Positions 21,232 through 63,570 of a stretch of 64,000 nt of DNA are shown in pieces (the stretch's first letter is position 1; every line of letters starts with the position of its first letter). The position numbers were made by a program, and so were the translations under genes. Source of the DNA: Gemmatimonadales bacterium (GTDB lineage Bacteria > Gemmatimonadota > Gemmatimonadetes > Gemmatimonadales > GWC2-71-9); assembly GCA_036377715.1 (NCBI GenBank), contig DASUXW010000161.1, positions 9,870 through 73,869 of the forward strand. Reading direction: 5' to 3'. A model generated the notes under the pieces. That model was not told the origin of the DNA. It did not search any database and saw only the letters and a program-made list of their open reading frames with translations.

Positions 21232-21432
21232 TCAGACCTTGCGGACGTTGGAGGCCTGTAGACCCTTGGGGCCTTCGACTACCTCGAATTCCACGTTGTC
21301 TCCCTCGGAGAGGGAGCGGAACCCCTCGGCGACGATAGCGGTGTGGTGAACGAAGACGTCCTTGCCGCCGTCCTGCGCGATGAAACCGAACCCCTTTGCG
21401 TCATTGAACCACTTGACCGTGCCCTTCGCCAT
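21232..21432 (-). CDS. cspA: Cold-shock protein (CSD)
   Basis: '[18 protein letters not shown]', 'VFVHHTAI'. Confidence 0.95.
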
Positions 21433-21626
21433 TGTTGCAACCTCTTGATAGGGAGCCCGCAGGCCCCGGGGAAACCCCGGCCTTCGTGGCCGGGTGACAC
21501 TGCCCCAAAGAAAAAGCCGCCCGGATTCAACTCCCGGCCGGCCGGCGACGACTCAATCGTGCAAGGGGTTCACTTCGCGGAGCATGGTCTAAGGTCATGC
21601 GGGGAATGGGATTTGTCAATATGGCG

Positions 21627-21666
21627 GGCGGACAGGCGGACAGGCGGACAGGCGGACAGGCGGACA
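21627..21666. repeat. Tandem octamer repeat (GGCGGACA) x5
   Basis: Five perfect consecutive copies, read directly. Confidence 0.95.
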
Positions 21667-21679
21667 GAGCGGTTCATCG

Positions 21680-22035
21680 GTGCGGCGCGTGGGCGGAGCT
21701 TCCGGAACAAACCGTAGACAAGACGGACGGCGAGATCGCGCTGCGAGTCGAGCGATTGCCAATCGTCGTCGGACAGCAGTCCTCGATCGTGGCTGAATCG
21801 GAGGAGCTAGGCGAGCTCGGAGCGCGACCCAAGGGACATATGGAGAAAGCGTTCGAATTCCCGTTCGCCCGGCTTCGCCGCACCTTCGGCGAGGTTGGTC
21901 GGCATCGAGAGCACCGCCTTGCGCACCTGCGAAGTCACCCCATACAACTCGCTTCGAGGCCATCGATCCGTTCGCGAGGAAACCGCCAGCACCGACTGGT
22001 GCGCGGCCCGCGTCGAAGCGCTCGAACGCCATCAT
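21680..22035 (-). pseudogene. Four-helix-bundle protein of the 23S rRNA intervening-sequence family (PF05635/TIGR02436-like), disrupted
   Basis: 'MMAFERFDA' in one frame, then 'AHQSVLAVSSRTDRWPRSELYGVTSQVRKAVLSMPTNLAEGAAKPGEREFERFLHMSLGSRSELA' in another frame. An in-frame TAG follows (21807-21809), then 'LLRFSHDRGLLSDDDWQSLD...VYGLFRKL'. Confidence 0.7.
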
Positions 22036-22105
22036 ACTTCAACGGTGGTGAATACCGCCGGTTCTTGACAGCCCAATCCACGCCTGCATCATCCCGCCCG
22101 CCCGT

Positions 22106-22627
22106 CTATCTCAACACGACTCCTGCCGTCCGCAATTCATGATCGAGCAGCCAGCGTTTGCGTGCCAGGCCGCCGCCGTAGCCGACCAGCGAGCCGTCCT
22201 TTCCGACCACGCGGTGACACGGAATGAGGATGGCGAGGTGATTGGCGGCCACCAGCCAGCCGATCTGCCGCGGGTGCAGACGGGTGGCGCGGGCGATGTC
22301 ATCGTACGAACGGGTCTCGCCCAGCGGGATCTTCCGCAGGGTCTTGAACACCGCCACCTGCGCCGGCGAGAGCTCGAACCAGTGACGCAGGTGCTCGGGA
22401 AATGGGAAAGCCCGGGGAGACCCGGCGAAGTACTCGTCCAGCCACGCGGCGGTGATGCGGCATGGCCCCTGGCCGATGTGAAGCTCCGGAATCGCCGAGC
22501 GGAGCCGCACGGCCCACTTCACGTCGGGGGTCCGGTGCGGAAACTCCACTACCAGCGGCCCTGTCTCACATTCCACTACTGTGAGTGCGCCGATGGGCGA
22601 ACTGTAGGTCGTCCATTCGACCTGCAT
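22106..22627 (-). CDS. ogt: Methylated-DNA--protein-cysteine methyltransferase
   Basis: Active site 'IPCHRVVGKDGSLVGYGGGLARKRWLLDHE'. Confidence 0.9.
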   Translation of the reverse strand: MQVEWTTYSSPIGALTVVECETGPLVVEFPHRTPDVKWAVRLRSAIPELHIGQGPCRITAAWLDEYFAGSPRAFPFPEHLRHWFELSPAQVAVFKTLRKIPLGETRSYDDIARATRLHPRQIGWLVAANHLAILIPCHRVVGKDGSLVGYGGGLARKRWLLDHELRTAGVVLR

Positions 22628-33546: not shown

Positions 33547-33638
33547 GACGGAGAGACGGAGAGACGGAGATGGACGCCACACCACCTGGCGTGGTTTACC
33601 TGTCCGTCCCTCCGTCCCTCCGTCCCTCCGTCTTCCGT
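33547..33638. repeat. Imperfect long hairpin built from (GACGGAGA)x3 and (TCCGTCCC)x3-4
   Basis: Units read directly. The arms are complementary except one A/C position per unit. A central 5-bp CGCCA/TGGCG stem is present. Confidence 0.85.
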
Positions 33639-51338: not shown

Positions 51339-51499
51339 TCACCACGGAAGCACGGAAGGCACGGAAGTGACACGGAAGGGGCGTCGGAGCAGTTCAGGGA
51401 GCGGAGCCCACGACGACATGCTTGTTGTTGTCACACGGAACCGTCCCGCCCCGGGGAACCTTCGGTGTCACCGCCGTGCCTTCCGCGCTTCCGTGGTGA
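51339..51499. repeat. Long inverted repeat of CACGGAAG-type tandem units (~41-nt arms, ~76-nt loop)
   Basis: Left arm TCACCACGGAAGCACGGAAGGCACGGAAGTGACACGGAAGG. Reverse complement of the right arm is TCACCACGGAAGCGCGGAAGGCACGGCGGTGACACCGAAGG (4 mismatches). Confidence 0.85.
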
Positions 51500-52815
51500 C
51501 TGGACAGGAGCGCGGGGCGGAGACGGGCGAAGACCGCGACTCCCACCGGCGTGCGGCTACCGTACGCCGGCTCAAGCGCGTCCGGGACCAGGTTGACCGC
51601 CGCCCGAGTCCCGACGCCGAGCGTGGCCCCCTGGAAGGCGGCGAACTCGCGAACGTAGCCGAGCGACAGGGTGCCGGTATCGAACTCCTCATCTGCTGCG
51701 CCGGGAATCACCAGGTCCTCGGCACTCTTCCGCACGTACTCGATTCGACCGAACACGGTGTTGGCCCGGTCGAGCTGCAGGTTCGATTCGGCCATCAGGC
51801 TATGCTCCCAGCCGCCGCCCTCGCCGCCGCGCGGCACGTGCTCGTTGCCCCCGTAGATCAGGGCGGACGCCCACTCGCCCGCGTTGCCGAACCGCAGGGT
51901 GTGCAGAACGGACGCGCCGAGGCGGCGCTGATCTTCGTCCGGATGGAGTGCCTCGGGCCGGACGAGATAGCCGTAGCTCGCGCTCAGCGCCCAACGCGAG
52001 GTCGGGTTCGCCGACACCCGGAAGCCGTACGAGTCGAGCGGGTGAAAGTCGAAGTCGTACCGGTCCTCATCGGGCTCCCGGCCGTTGAAGAGGGTGGCTT
52101 CGAGCTTCACGCTTCGGGTGAACACCCCCGCCGTCAGCACGCCGTAGGTAATGTGGGTGGCGTCGGTCCAGTGGTGCGGCAGCGGCGCGAACGGGTCGTT
52201 GAGCGCCGATGGGCGGTGCATGTATGCAACCGGTCCGATCCCGGGCTCGCCCACGGGGGCGGCGTAGACGACGACGCCGAGGCGGCGTGAGACCGGCCGC
52301 TCGTACATCGCCGACAGCTCCATGAAGAGGTCGTGCGGATGCTGCCGATCGTGGAGCGGTGCGCCCCGGTAGGATTCGCCGCTCTGCAGGAGCAGCGGAT
52401 AACCTCCCGCCCCGATCGTGAGCGGCTCGGCGCTCATCATCCCGTGGAGGTGCAGCGTGCCGGCGCCCAGCGGTCGCATGGCCATGAGCATCGCCCAGTT
52501 GATGCTGCCGAGCTGGTCGTCGCCGCGCGCCCCGCCCTGATGGTCGTACTGCAGAAAGGCATCGCCGTGCACCATCAACATCCAGCGCCCGGCGGTGAAG
52601 TGCCATGCGCGCATTCCCGAGGCGTCGGGAAGCCAGGCGGTGCCGGAACCCATGCGGGTCATCGGGATCCCGAGCGGACGCACGGGCATGTCCGGCATCG
52701 CGGGCATGGCGCTGGAATCGTGGTGCTCGTGGCCGACCTGCGCTGACAGGCTGCACGCCGGAAGCACGGGGCCGGCGGTCGCGAGGACGATCGGAAGGAC
52801 CAGACAACGGGCCAT
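51394..52815 (-). CDS. Secreted/outer-membrane protein with His/Met-rich N-terminus (putative copper-related)
   Basis: Signal peptide 'MARCLVLPIVLATAGPVLPAC'. 'GHEHHDSSAMPAMPDMP'. Beta-rich body. The last ~34 codons run into the repeat element. Confidence 0.6.
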   Translation of the reverse strand: MARCLVLPIVLATAGPVLPACSLSAQVGHEHHDSSAMPAMPDMPVRPLGIPMTRMGSGTAWLPDASGMRAWHFTAGRWMLMVHGDAFLQYDHQGGARGDDQLGSINWAMLMAMRPLGAGTLHLHGMMSAEPLTIGAGGYPLLLQSGESYRGAPLHDRQHPHDLFMELSAMYERPVSRRLGVVVYAAPVGEPGIGPVAYMHRPSALNDPFAPLPHHWTDATHITYGVLTAGVFTRSVKLEATLFNGREPDEDRYDFDFHPLDSYGFRVSANPTSRWALSASYGYLVRPEALHPDEDQRRLGASVLHTLRFGNAGEWASALIYGGNEHVPRGGEGGGWEHSLMAESNLQLDRANTVFGRIEYVRKSAEDLVIPGAADEEFDTGTLSLGYVREFAAFQGATLGVGTRAAVNLVPDALEPAYGSRTPVGVAVFARLRPALLSSHHGSAEGTAVTPKVPRGGTVPCDNNKHVVVGSAP

Positions 52816-52951
52816 CCCCCGTGCGATTGCCGGCGCCGGCCGCCGGCCCGCGGCTCCATCGAGGGGGAGTTTTCCACCCGTGTGACCGAACTCACCGTGG
52901 CCACCGCGCTGCGTCCGCATACTGGATTCTCGCCGGCACCCAGCGTGAGGT

Positions 52952-53398
52952 ATGCCCGTGTTCGTCTCCCCGAGATCGACCCGCCGCATCCTCACGCTCC
53001 TCCCCTTCCTCTTCTCACTGACCGCCTGCGGCCCGAAGCCGCCCCGGAAGCAGCTCGACAAGCATGGCAAGTCGGTGGCGTCATGGGCGGCGACTGCGGA
53101 GATGGTCGCCACCGCCTGGCTCCGCGGCGACGTGCCGACCGACTACGCCCGGCAGACGCTCCAGAGCGGCGCGAAACAGGTCGAGCGCGCGCGCAGCTCG
53201 CTCGCCCAGGTCGCCGCGGGCGATTCGCTGGCCGAGGCGGCGGTCGAGGCGTACGGCCGGCTGGCCGATCGGCTGACCCGGATGACCGCCGCACTCCAGC
53301 AGAATGATCGCTCGGCCGTGGAGCAGTCGACCGATCGGCTCCCCAGCGAAGCACAACGCATCCGGGCCCTGCGAGGGCACGTTCGGCCCGGTGCATGA
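52952..53398 (+). CDS. Hypothetical lipoprotein
   Basis: Lipobox 'LFSLTACG'. Helical body. Confidence 0.55.
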   Translation: MPVFVSPRSTRRILTLLPFLFSLTACGPKPPRKQLDKHGKSVASWAATAEMVATAWLRGDVPTDYARQTLQSGAKQVERARSSLAQVAAGDSLAEAAVEAYGRLADRLTRMTAALQQNDRSAVEQSTDRLPSEAQRIRALRGHVRPGA

Positions 53399-61053: not shown

Positions 61054-61656
61054 ATGACGAACGCATTCAGAGTGCTCGCGGCCGGAGCGGTTGTCGCGTT
61101 GGCGACTGGTTTGATGCCCCTCGAGCGAGCCGAGTCCCAGCAATTGCCGCGCGTCGTCATCGAGACCGAGCTCGGCGACATCGAAGTAGAGATCGACAGC
61201 ATCCACGCTCCGGTCACATCCGCCAACTTCCTCCGGTACGTCGATCTCGGCTTCTACCGGTTCGGCCGCTTCCACCGCACCGTGCGGGCCGACAACCAGC
61301 CCAACGACAAGGTGAAGATCACGGTGGTGCAGGCCGGGCTCGACCCCTACCGGGTCAAGGATTTTCCCCCCATCCCGCTCGAGCGCACCAAGGACACCGG
61401 CCTCCGGCACAAGGACGGCACCATCTCAATGGCCCGCGACGGCCCCAACACGGCCACCTCCGACTTCTTCATCTGCATCGGCGACCAGCCCGCGCTCGAT
61501 TACGGCGGAAAACGGAACCCTGACGGCCAGGGCTTCGCGGCGTTCGGACGGGTGGTCCTGGGAATGGACGTGGTTCGGAAGATCAATCAGTCGCCGGCCG
61601 AGGGGCAGAGGCTGGAGCCGGCGATCGGGATTCGGGAGATTGGGAGGAAGCGGTGA
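61054..61656 (+). CDS. Cyclophilin-type peptidyl-prolyl isomerase, secreted
   Basis: Signal peptide. 'FHRTVRAD', 'GTISMARDGPNTATSDFFICIGDQPALD'. Confidence 0.9.
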   Translation: MTNAFRVLAAGAVVALATGLMPLERAESQQLPRVVIETELGDIEVEIDSIHAPVTSANFLRYVDLGFYRFGRFHRTVRADNQPNDKVKITVVQAGLDPYRVKDFPPIPLERTKDTGLRHKDGTISMARDGPNTATSDFFICIGDQPALDYGGKRNPDGQGFAAFGRVVLGMDVVRKINQSPAEGQRLEPAIGIREIGRKR

Positions 61657-61663
61657 GCGAAAT

Positions 61664-61747
61664 GCGGTAAGCGGTAAGCGGTGAGCGGGAACTGCACACC
61701 GGAGTGGTCTGGTGTGCGGTTCCCGCTCACCGCTTACCGCTTACCGC
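61664..61747. repeat. 37-bp-stem hairpin built from GCGGTRA heptamer repeats (10-nt loop)
   Basis: The left arm (61664-61700) is the reverse complement of the right arm (61711-61747) with a single T/G difference. Confidence 0.95.
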
Positions 61748-63570
61748 TCACTGCCTCCGTGCAAGATCCCGCTCCGAACCCTCACCGCCTTCCCCGACGC
61801 CGCCGGATCGATGCTCAGCCGCCGCTCGATGCGGGTGGCCAGGCGCACCGTGCCGTTCAGCGTGATCGTCTGGCCGGCGCGGCGGACGACGATAGAGAGA
61901 TGTTGTCCTTCCGCGTGGCTGAAGCGGGTGCGGTACTGCTCGCCGAAGCTCGAGTCGGTGACGGCCAGCTCGCCCAGTTTGAGCAGGACGTCGCCGCTCT
62001 GCACCCCGGCATCCGCAGCGGCGCTTCCCGGGACGACCTCGGTCACCATGATGGCCCCGCTCGAATCCACGTTCGTGCCGATGCCGAGCCGGGGCTCGCG
62101 CACGGTGTCGGCCTCGAGCCGGAGCCCGGCCAGCGGGAGCACCTCGGTCCACGGGAACGGCAGGCGGCCGTCCACGTACTTCGCCGCGAAACCATTGAAG
62201 TTTTTCCCGCCGCCATTCCGGGACACCGCGCGCCACCAGTCCGCGCCCGTGAACCCTCGACCGGCCTTGTAGGTGCTCCGGTAGAGGTCGCGCATGACAT
62301 CATCGAGGGAGTGGTGGTTATCGCTCGCATCGCGGATCAGGATGTCCAGCAGCAGCCCCGCCAGAGAGCCCTTGGGATAGTAGAGGTAGCCGCTGCCGTC
62401 GGTGGGGTGGATCCAGGTCGAGAGCGAGGCATCCTCCAAGGCCGTGGGCGGCGCCTCCGCGACCGTGCCGATCTTCTGGGTGGTGGTGGTGAGGAACTGC
62501 GCGCTGTCGATGACTCCGCCCCGCAGGACCGCCAGGTCGGCGTAATAGTCGGTGATGCCCTCGCTGACCCAGAGCCAGGGCGTGGGCTCGCTCCGGTCGT
62601 AGCGATAGGGCACCATGTCGGCCGGGCGGAGCCGCTTGACGTTCCAGGCGTGGAAGATCTCGTGCGCGGTGATCGACGGCAGAATCGGAGTGCCGATGAA
62701 GCCGGGGTTATAGATCCCTACGTGCGAGTTGGTGTGCTCCAGCGCGCTCCCGCCGCCGTAGGTCGAGTCGAAGATCATCATGACCGTGTAATTCGGCCAC
62801 GGTGTCTCACCGAACACGGCAGCCTCGGCGGGGATCACCTTCCCGATCTCGTCCCAGACCTGCGCCCGCGCCGGGCCGGTGAGCTGTCCTGCCGGATAGG
62901 TGGCGAGACGGGTCCAGGTTCCGGCCACCCTGGTGCTGTCGTAGTCCATCCGGCCCACGAAGAACGGCTTGTCCACCAGGTCGTGGTAGTTGCCTTCGCG
63001 CCAGGTACGCCGGCGGCCGGGCACCGCCCGCATGCCGGTCGCGACCAGCCACTCGGGCTCCGTGTTCACGGTGACGGTCGCGGGGAAGTCGGTGCCGCGA
63101 CCTTCCGGATACGGGAACACGTTGGTGCCGTTGAACAGCGCGAAGTCGGGCCGGGCCCAGGCCATCGCGTTGTCGAGCGTGTCGGCCAGGTAGTCGAAGT
63201 GCAGGGTGATGGCCCGCGCGCCGCCGGGCTGGATCCGCCAGGTGTCATAATCCAGCTTGTCCCACGGGAGGGCCTTCCCGCCGCCGGTCGGGTTGAAATT
63301 GGAGACCCAGCGCGCGAACCAGCTCAGCTCGTAGGCGCCGGGTGTCCATGCCGGCAGCGACAAAAGCACCAGCCCCGGCCCCTTCACGTCGAAGCTCATC
63401 GCCACCTTGAGCGTGCGGGCGCGCGCGGTGGCGGAGTCGAAGGTGATCTCGTAGCGCACGTTCGCGATGGGCGCCGAGCGGACTGGACGTGGCTGCTGGG
63501 CCGCGACGGAGCGCACGGGGACAGCCAGCGCCAGGGCAGTGACACAGGAATACAGGGTGCGACGTTTCAT
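61741..63570 (-). CDS. M61 glycyl aminopeptidase with C-terminal PDZ domain
   Basis: 'HEIFHAWNVKRLRP', 'SEGITDYYA', PDZ 'GVQSGDVLLKLG'. Signal peptide present. Confidence 0.85.
   Translation of the reverse strand: MKRRTLYSCVTALALAVPVRSVAAQQPRPVRSAPIANVRYEITFDSATARARTLKVAMSFDVKGPGLVLLSLPAWTPGAYELSWFARWVSNFNPTGGGKALPWDKLDYDTWRIQPGGARAITLHFDYLADTLDNAMAWARPDFALFNGTNVFPYPEGRGTDFPATVTVNTEPEWLVATGMRAVPGRRRTWREGNYHDLVDKPFFVGRMDYDSTRVAGTWTRLATYPAGQLTGPARAQVWDEIGKVIPAEAAVFGETPWPNYTVMMIFDSTYGGGSALEHTNSHVGIYNPGFIGTPILPSITAHEIFHAWNVKRLRPADMVPYRYDRSEPTPWLWVSEGITDYYADLAVLRGGVIDSAQFLTTTTQKIGTVAEAPPTALEDASLSTWIHPTDGSGYLYYPKGSLAGLLLDILIRDASDNHHSLDDVMRDLYRSTYKAGRGFTGADWWRAVSRNGGGKNFNGFAAKYVDGRLPFPWTEVLPLAGLRLEADTVREPRLGIGTNVDSSGAIMVTEVVPGSAAADAGVQSGDVLLKLGELAVTDSSFGEQYRTRFSHAEGQHLSIVVRRAGQTITLNGTVRLATRIERRLSIDPAASGKAVRVRSGILHGGSER

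Follow-up and report, generated by a model that had tools for sequence, protein, structure and literature searches.

Among described systems, the intervening sequences (IVSs) of bacterial 23S rRNA genes come closest to the element considered here. In Coxiella burnetii, the IVS is 428-444 nt long, has a 28-bp terminal stem that is cut by RNase III, and carries in its loop an open reading frame (ORF) for the S23p protein (PMC4990558). According to the same 2016 study, the origin of IVSs and the role of their conserved ORF are unclear, and the view of the IVS as a mobile element whose ORF aids mobility is a hypothesis only (PMC4990558). Here we describe a block of DNA that holds a gene of this family, also called 23S-rRNA-IVS protein or Avd-like, at positions 21629-22105 of a 64,000-nt stretch from a Gemmatimonadales bacterium (contig DASUXW010000161.1; the whole stretch is referred to below as the window). 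With a probability of roughly three in four, we read this block as a dead, IVS-like insertion element, composed of a G-rich array of short repeats, a cassette of ~435 nt with a leader and a ~120-codon gene for a four-helix-bundle (4HB) protein, and a reverse-complement array.

In the mechanism that we propose, the intact arrays would pair as a stem of ~30-60 bp that closes around the cassette, as in ORF-bearing 23S rRNA IVSs, with the difference that the arms are made of tandem repeats and that the element sits at the 3' end of an ordinary gene. In the lineage of the window, it landed between the stop codon of a gene for MGMT and the promoter of the cold-shock gene cspA; afterwards, most of the left arm was lost, a 5-nt deletion arose, a tyrosine codon became TAG, and the stop codon of the gene disappeared.

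The likeness to the ORF-bearing IVSs of Coxiella burnetii and Leptospira lies in the PF05635 protein and, in intact relatives, in the stem-forming complementary termini around the ORF. The sizes agree as well, since the block measures 477 nt and the spacer of the family has a median of 435 nt, against 428-444 nt in Coxiella and about 430-760 nt in ORF-bearing IVSs as a class, and both kinds of element occur sporadically among close relatives. In contrast to IVSs, which are located in helix 9, 25 or 45 of 23S rRNA, the elements described here lie outside rRNA genes, their arms are tandem 8-nt units of variable copy number instead of unique inverted repeats, and the copy in the window, a pseudogene, has a stem that is eroded. 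An Rfam search found no rRNA in the window (only a tRNA), a sarcin-ricin-loop motif is present in none of 178 loci, and no link to a Gemmatimonadota 23S rRNA gene was found in these searches.

Two further systems share the architecture in part. Eukaryotic Foldback (FB) elements have long inverted arms of short tandem repeats, and exist in forms with a central coding region or in forms that are nearly all arm; they are far larger and need an associated transposase. Long tandem-repeat inverted arms, with or without a central gene, are thus common to both, whereas Foldback elements have no sequence relationship with the 4HB elements. In bacterial REPIN/RAYT systems (repetitive extragenic palindromic, REP, doublets forming hairpins, and REP-associated tyrosine transposases), a small gene lies between inverted copies of a hairpin repeat, of which cargo-less copies are scattered over gene 3' ends as well; RAYT belongs to the HUH/Y1 transposases and has a known chemistry, and the REP arms are single palindromes. 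The 4HB protein, in contrast, has no recognisable catalytic motif (only PF05635 was detected), its arms are tandem arrays, and the window holds no other array with the GGCGGACA unit of the element. In Xanthomonas, the repeat that brackets the 4HB gene in inverted orientation is also dispersed in the genome, as seen from the locus together with PMC4692102.

Furthermore, a published review states that PF05635 resembles Avd, the accessory protein of diversity-generating retroelements (DGRs) (PMC10053308), and several homologues of the window copy also list PF22296 in precomputed Pfam assignments. Both proteins are homologous pentameric four-helix bundles, but neither a reverse transcriptase nor a template/variable repeat lies beside the gene, here or in the relatives inspected. 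In the open-access literature and in bioRxiv, we found no account of inverted tandem arrays on both sides of a 4HB gene, and this repeat-armed packaging seems to be undescribed so far.

A dead insertion between the MGMT and cspA genes

On the window's minus strand, the MGMT gene is followed by the 4HB block and then by cspA. The gap between the two genes is 673 nt in the window and 664 nt in L001, a second, independent assembly from the European Nucleotide Archive (ENA), whose MGMT is 97% identical to that of the window; both gaps contain the 4HB gene. In ~35 other syntenic Gemmatimonadales contigs, which are those retrieved with close MGMT homologues, the gap is 143-319 nt and holds the 4HB gene in none. 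Since the block is absent from these relatives, it represents an insertion of ~477 nt between the MGMT stop codon and the -35 box of cspA.

The junctions are defined by L118, the empty allele closest to the window, in which the available part of MGMT is 95% identical. There, the TAG stop codon of MGMT is followed at once by CCCGCCATATTGACA, with no hairpin and only CCCGCC, whereas in the window TAG is followed by ACGGGCGGGCGGG, the cassette, the (TGTCCGCC)n array and then CCCGCCATATTGACA. Alignment and junctions against this allele place the whole block at 21629-22105 on the minus strand. Its left boundary is the MGMT stop codon itself (22108-22106, minus strand), which is kept in relatives, the insertion starting from the next base; its right boundary region is marked by the cspA -35 box TTGACA (21614-21619, minus strand), which is conserved in every syntenic relative immediately after the variable spacer. 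Since CCGCC stands on both sides, the boundary can be placed only to within a few bases.

Within the block and in the direction of the gene, a stump of a G-rich tandem array, ACGGGCGGGCGGG, at 22093-22105 is all that is left of the 5' arm. It is followed by a leader (GATGATGCAGGCGTGGATTGGGCTGTCAAG...) that reaches to the start codon (22036-22092), by the 4HB pseudogene (21690-22035), and by the 3' arm, (TGTCCGCC)5.6, which is C-rich on the gene strand and lies at 21627-21672; Tandem Repeats Finder (TRF) reports the latter with period 8, 5.6 copies, 97% matches and a score of 83. All these parts are on the minus strand. With G.U pairs included, the right arm is complementary to units of the GGCGGACA or GGCGGGCG type.

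An initial annotation, made from the letters alone, had proposed a full-length, minus-strand gene of the IVS-type family, broken by one frameshift near 22000-22012 and by one TAG. The profile searches bear this out: with frameshift and stop repaired, the translation matches PF05635 at 77.8 bits (cut-off 33.8) over profile positions 2-99 of 106, and TIGR02436 at 73.3 bits (cut-off 24) over positions 2-108 of 109. The intact homologue P0001, which is 72% identical to the repaired window copy, matches XCC0516, a pentameric protein of solved structure (PDB 2GSC), with E = 5e-21. The N-terminus, MMAFERFDA, is read in one minus-strand frame from 22035, and the remainder, AAHQSVLAV...ELYGVTSQVRKAVLSMPTNLAEG...GSRSELA*LLRFS...VYGLFRKLR, in another. 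The frame changes at ~22009/22008, within the interval first suggested, and the alignment with homologues identifies the lesion as a 5-nt deletion that removed conserved Trp-Arg codons, GAC GCG [TGG CG]G GCC GCG CAC, the lost bases being bracketed. The in-frame TAG was found at 21807-21809, as annotated, yet the residue expected there is not the glutamine (CAG) that had been assumed: the codon replaces an invariant tyrosine of the motif SEL.YLLRF, and since all full-length aligned homologues carry this tyrosine, the ancestral codon was TAC or TAT.

Homologues stop 5-9 residues beyond the motif 'YRK.R'. This stop has been lost in the window copy, the open frame of which continues through the octamer repeat to 21570, in agreement with the early remark that the frame runs into the array. 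The 9-nt inverted match that had been taken to bracket the unit is also present (GGCGGGCGG at 21623-31 and CCGCCCGCC at 22094-102) but is weak evidence on its own, as such a match arises by chance in ~1.6% of random pairs of 40-nt windows placed 480 nt apart in this DNA; it gains meaning only as the remainder of an arm which, in intact relatives, is long.

L001 carries the same TAG and the same 5-nt deletion; it also has a further 1-nt deletion and one octamer fewer than the window. Hence, the lesions are not assembly errors, and the comparison of this locus in related genomes, which the initial annotation had called for, yielded one copy with the same lesions and ~35 contigs without the gene. 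With a deletion, a TAG and its usual stop missing, the ORF in the window is not intact, and this copy is a dead, non-functional relic with an eroded left arm.

Between the window and L001, the stretch from ~22300 to 21300 is 97-100% identical, and the surrounding genes are 79-93% identical. This tract of ~1 kb reaches from the 3' end of MGMT across the dead element and over cspA, and it suggests that the already-dead element was recently moved between lineages on a recombination tract.

Intact relatives carry the gene between inverted tandem arrays

A family-alignment scan of one genome per species gave 584 relatives, of which the best 80, almost all Gemmatimonadales, were kept, and TRF was run on the 220-nt flanks of 94 sources. 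An upstream array was found in 78 of 84 flanks and a downstream array in 81 of 89, compared with 17% and 15% of control pairs (n = 2081); both arrays together flank the gene in 70 of 82 loci and occur in 3% of the controls. The array periods are mostly 8, and also 4, 9, 10, 14, 15 and 18-20. The units vary from locus to locus (GGCGGACG, GGCGGTCA, GAGGGAAC, GGGCGAAA, 10-mers, 15-mers), yet the two arms of one locus match: where the periods agree, the downstream unit is mostly the reverse complement of the upstream unit with 0-1 mismatch, which holds for most same-period 4HB pairs and for 0 of the 2081 random control pairs. After removal of redundancy, 62 of 71 loci with full flanks have both arrays, and 43 of these are inverted by a strict 6-mer test. 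In these 43 loci, the spacer from arm to arm has a median of 435 nt (interquartile range 426-450), and the arms have median lengths of 49 and 42 nt, reaching up to ~150-170 nt.

These counts confirm that family members carry flanking repeat stems; as the TAG and the frameshift also recur in L001, neither of the two outcomes that would have spoken against the initial annotation was observed. The counts further bear on the simplest alternative, namely that a decayed ordinary gene lies by coincidence beside an unrelated microsatellite, with a fortuitous 9-nt inverted match. The chance rate of that match given above and the frequency of short G+C-rich tandem repeats in the window (69 TRF rows in 64 kb) would allow for such a coincidence. 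It is refuted by the excess of paired arrays over controls, by the matched units, and by the conservation of the homologous leader and of the arm positions in the relatives L005, L008 and L011, so that we assign it next to no chance.

The latter relatives illustrate which parts are missing from the window copy. Its closest homologues with an intact gene (61-69% identity) have unrelated neighbourhoods, either between the DinB and P-II genes or flanked by a gene of 51 residues and one for aldehyde dehydrogenase. L005, L008 and L011 follow a common plan, (GGGCGGAC)n, leader and ORF, (GTCCGCCC)n. In L005, this reads (GGGCGGAC)6, a leader of ~60 nt, the ORF, and (GTCCGCCC/T)7, and L008 is built alike with ~11 upstream units. 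At the position of the left arm, intact homologues have 3-19 copies of GGGCGGAC-type units; the window keeps the leader GATGATGCAGGCGTGGATTGGGCTGTCAAG, which is conserved with these three loci, and the right arm, while its left arm has shrunk to ACGGGCGGGCGGG. Folding reflects this difference. The L005 element reaches -295 kcal/mol against -241 +/- 6.6 for shuffled sequences (z = -8.3) and is closed by a stem of ~50 bp between the arms, whereas the window copy folds no better than its shuffles (z = +0.4), the left stump pairing over only ~12 bp with the right array. The initial annotation had ventured that the locus might be a repeat hairpin with cargo, now in decay, which is of IVS type and lies outside rRNA; stem-armed intact relatives, the absence of the block from syntenic relatives and the gene-less hairpins at the same site in other lineages (see below) strongly support this idea.

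The arms co-vary and are inherited with the gene. L011 is orthologous to L008, as their flanks align, and has the arms (GGACGGAC/GGAGGGAC) and (GTCCGTCC/GTCTGTCC); from L008 to L011, both arms have changed together, from GGGCGGAC/GTCCGCCC to GGACGGAC/GTCCGTCC. L034 and L035 are 95% identical over leader, ORF and arms, and their downstream flanks are unrelated. Across loci, the class of the arms tracks the similarity of the proteins (2 of 5000 permutations), the nearest protein neighbour being of the same arm class in 37 of 57 cases, and in 74 of 77 loci it is the arm upstream of the gene that is G-rich. Shared arms with unrelated flanks, class tracking and the polarity of the G-rich arm therefore favour arms that are inherited with the cassette over arms that are borrowed from the target. 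This arm-cassette-arm design is found family-wide, and also in Xanthomonas (see below).

For ten pairs of intact copies, the ratio of nonsynonymous to synonymous substitution rates (dN/dS) is 0.045-0.31, mostly ~0.1, so that the intact 4HB protein is kept by purifying selection. This would also be expected if the 4HB gene were an ordinary, immobile host gene, flanked by arrays that form a cis-acting RNA or DNA structure; the arrays could then serve as iterons bound by a protein, as tracts that form G-quadruplexes or i-motifs, or as a terminator or stabiliser of the 3' end, and presence and absence would reflect deletion of an unstable palindromic region. Several features fit such a role: arms often abut the stop codon of the neighbouring gene (left 22 of 52, right 29 of 57), GGGCGGAC arrays satisfy the G3N5 quadruplex motif and the polarity of the G-rich arm is fixed, and the GGGAATC arrays of Xanthomonas form G-quadruplexes in vitro and cluster by stop codons (PMC4692102). 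Array copy number also differs between near-identical strains, as slippage predicts; the near-identical contigs L008, L009 and L010 have 10.5, 8.5 and 4.5 upstream units. An immobile host gene is nevertheless quite unlikely, given that close homologues occupy unrelated contexts (DinB/P-II, the 51-residue gene/aldehyde dehydrogenase, MGMT/cspA, accB/accC), that the ~35 syntenic relatives lack the block and have short, varied junctions unlike deletion scars, that elements 95% identical have unrelated flanks, and that an insertion within the accBC operon is hard to see as ancestral.

Presence and absence at one site, varied contexts, and arms shared between loci with unrelated flanks together point to an insertion element that would relocate as a whole. 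Where it is transcribed from a neighbouring gene, RNase III would, by analogy with IVSs, cut the long stem in such read-in transcripts, which would free the cassette and spare the expression of the host gene, and the 4HB protein itself may act on the repeat arms.

The leader contains a promoter-like motif on the plus strand, TTGACA-16-CATCAT (22065-22092), which points outward to MGMT. Both hexamer positions are kept in L008 and L011 (TTGACA...CACCAC or CATCAT), and this candidate might drive transcription out through the left arm. A consensus scan of the element for promoters gave this motif, on the strand opposite to the gene, as its sole match; a wider alignment of leaders shows a candidate GGTAC...TAnnnT near the ATG on the sense strand.

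A number of points weigh against our interpretation of the block as an IVS-like insertion element. If the promoter of the 4HB gene itself is in the leader, the mRNA of the gene would lack the left arm, and the stem would form only in read-through transcripts or in DNA. The energy of arm pairing favours the sense RNA weakly (43 versus 32 loci, p = 0.03, redundant loci included), too small a bias to decide between a stem of RNA and one of DNA. Comparison of the occupied and the empty MGMT-cspA junction, the one site with an empty allele, gave no target-site duplication; around the L008/L011 element there is a loose similarity of 9-10 nt, TAGATCACA versus TACATCCACA, a single case judged by eye. 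The protein is a bundle of ~120 residues without a recognisable transposase, nuclease or reverse-transcriptase domain, and PADLOC and PHROG gave no hits; as such, both hallmarks of a classical transposon or miniature inverted-repeat transposable element (MITE), a target-site duplication at this junction and a transposase domain, are missing. No near-identical copies were found at different sites of one genome in our sample of one genome per species. Finally, the query used to rank relatives held the translated repeat tail of the window copy, which may favour loci with CCGCC-type downstream arrays. Both arrays are still present in ~34 of ~40 loci whose match ends before this tail, and the query contained no upstream array at all.

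Among the best 80 loci, some genomes are represented twice, so the 4HB gene is multi-copy in this order. In L058, two copies lie 1.5 kb apart (699-1045 and 2501-2836), one of them split by a frameshift. The arms of L054 (245-657), (GTACGRCG)n, enclose 297 nt without a 4HB match, and those of L064 (2370-3312), which are 10-mers, enclose the gene and ~400 nt more, with a spacer of 836 nt. L179 (1201-1479) has a 4HB copy with normal upstream (GACG/GACGGACG) arrays that is broken at ~codon 68 near the contig end, which could be the insertion of another element or a chimeric contig. P0034 was considered as an internal-deletion intermediate and rejected, since its gene is broken at ~codon 68 by unrelated DNA near the contig end. 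We make no claim about a preference for TAG or TAA stop codons beside the arms, because arrays that hold TAA or TAG end any frame that enters them; moreover, the ORF calls are crude. Many contigs with the 4HB gene (L015, L033, L034, L035, L046, L051, L056 and L068) end inside or at arrays, and the repeat arms appear to be break points in short-read metagenome assemblies. In practical terms, the arrays break such assemblies, and reading frames that enter the repeats lengthen ORF calls.

Hairpins without the gene and the surroundings of the block

A census of inverted array pairs in 692 kb (the window and 173 loci, mostly Gemmatimonadota) gave 69 pairs with a bimodal spacer. In 48 of them, the spacer is 400-550 nt and corresponds to 4HB cassettes; ~20 have a loop of 17-113 nt without cargo. 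These short-loop hairpins are mostly made of diverse 7-nt units, whereas 4HB arms are mostly made of 8-nt units with a GGCGG or GACGG core, a difference which argues that most cargo-less hairpins are not derived from 4HB elements. Some 7-nt units recur across genomes, such as GAGCGGT (window, L036) and GAGAAGT (L019, L112).

The window itself has at least three well-supported hairpins of this kind at gene 3' ends. The first, at 33547-33632 between co-directional minus-strand genes, has the octamer arms (GACGGAGA)3 and (TCCGTCCC)3.8 and forms on the minus, transcribed strand an uninterrupted stem of 24 bp with G.U pairs (z = -8.1 for this strand, ~-7 to -8 for the hairpin). The call of the upstream ORF enters its right arm. 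Its loop was considered as a remnant of a 4HB leader (GGCGTGGTTTACC versus GGCGTGGATTGGG), but the stretch is too short to judge. The second, at 61633-61771 (z = -17 and -13), is built of the heptamers AAGCGGT/GAGCGGT and CCGCTTA/CCGCTCA and takes up precisely the space that separates the stop codons of two convergent genes; its unit also forms a cargo-less hairpin in L036 (2769-2913). The third is a 52-nt inverted pair at 51339-51499, between convergent genes, which is 83% complementary and has a 57-nt loop and (CACGGAAGG)4 as its left arm. Its right arm and the 3' end of a called ORF (51394-53112) overlap.

At the MGMT-cspA site, hairpins without the gene are found in other lineages: the arms are (GGGAGTC)n and (GACTCCC)n in L102 and of the (AGTCGTC)n type in L104 and L105, while in L129 a loop of only 37 nt is enclosed by octamer arms of 4HB type, (GGCGGTGA)n and (TACCGCCT)n. 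The site has therefore been occupied repeatedly by tandem-arm hairpins, with or without the gene. The empty hairpins of the window may, as the initial annotation suggested, be IVS-like elements or their remnants, but they lack the GGCGGACA unit, and most cargo-less hairpins of the census are made of 7-mers. The L129 hairpin and the one at 33547 are candidates for a 4HB origin.

That such hairpins are common at gene 3' ends, and recur at this very site, also bears on a second way in which the cassette might have arrived. Leader and ORF alone could be mobile and enter the apical loop of an existing hairpin at a gene 3' end, the arms then stemming from the target. There are precedents for this, in that IVSs take the place of tetraloops in rRNA helices and that REP palindromes are insertion sites of IS1397; L129, with arms of the 4HB type and a loop of 37 nt, also fits this route. 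At the window locus, however, the closest empty allele has CCCGCC and no hairpin, and over the family the tracking of protein similarity by arm class, the common arms and different flanks of L034 and L035, the upstream position of the G-rich arm, and the prevalence of GGCGG-core 8-mers in 4HB arms as opposed to diverse 7-mers in cargo-less hairpins all speak against borrowed arms. We hence consider this route unlikely and retain the insertion of a complete arm-cassette-arm unit.

As to its surroundings, the window has a G+C content of ~70%, and its proteins find their best matches in uncultured Gemmatimonadales. The MGMT/Ogt gene (22106-22627, minus strand) matches PF01035 (8e-26) and PF02870, and cspA (21232-21432, minus strand) matches PF00313 (6e-28); further neighbours encode a periplasmic binding protein and an HD protein. 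From the cspA -35 box to the start codon (21433-21620, ~190 nt), the DNA is highly conserved in relatives with MGMT identities of 57-97%, which is consistent with a long structured 5' untranslated region of cspA.

The Xanthomonas locus and a possible role of the 4HB protein

Inverted arms 385-490 nt apart surround the gene in one Limnocylindrales, one Anaerolineales and one deltaproteobacterial genome as well. Homologues and loci of Xanthomonas were found with the partial sequence of XCC0516. There, the 4HB gene (L174-L178, ~1424-1875) lies between accB and accC, inside the operon. Its left array reads GGGAATC GGGAGTG GAGAATC GGGAATC, with the GTG start codon inside the array, and its right array, four units of the GATTCCC type (CATTCCC CATTCTC GACTCCC TATTCCC), stands directly before the ATG of accC. 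The arms pair in register (z = -7.1).

The GGGAATC heptamer is a described repeat. In the part of the study of Rehm et al. 2015 considered here, ~180 sites are given per Xanthomonas genome, ~70 of them as convergent pairs; the arrays are mostly intergenic, concentrated beside stop codons and variable in copy number between relatives, and they are read as G-quadruplex motifs, with quadruplex formation in vitro (PMC4692102). A term search of the text of this paper gave no mention of XCC0516, S23 or the four-helix protein. The Xanthomonas arrays resemble the hairpins of the window in being inverted pairs of short tandem repeats near stop codons, and this repeat brackets the Xanthomonas 4HB gene itself. 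They differ in that one unit is used genome-wide, whereas the units of Gemmatimonadales vary from hairpin to hairpin.

In a further line of work, a figure legend of PMC10910872 names '23S rRNA IVP' as one of the proteins whose association with CRISPR arrays or adaptation modules is enhanced. The tandem arrays that flank 4HB genes might contribute to this signal.

These parallels lead to a broader idea, which is tentative and which we would sooner expect to fail than to hold: S23p/Avd-like 4HB proteins could be trans-acting partners of foldback hairpins with short-tandem-repeat arms in several phyla. If so, the gene would ride inside such a hairpin and the protein would recognise its unit, which would explain why the arm class tracks the protein. 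The protein would help hairpins at gene 3' ends to form, to become homogeneous or to spread, and the system would be an analogue of REPIN/RAYT built on a non-enzymatic, nucleic-acid-binding pentamer. ORF-bearing IVSs of rRNA genes would then be copies that landed in rRNA helices, and the dispersed GGGAATC arrays of Xanthomonas would be part of the same system. Since Xanthomonas is tractable, the structure of XCC0516 is solved, and the arm repeat is a known, dispersed family still in want of a functional explanation, the question is directly testable there.

In summary, a single locus shows presence and absence of the block between close relatives at a defined junction, the arms co-vary over dozens of loci, and the architecture recurs in at least four other lineages, Xanthomonas included. 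The gene that is known from the IVSs of 23S rRNA thus occurs in an IVS-sized and IVS-shaped package outside rRNA, and this finding could help to explain the origin of IVSs.

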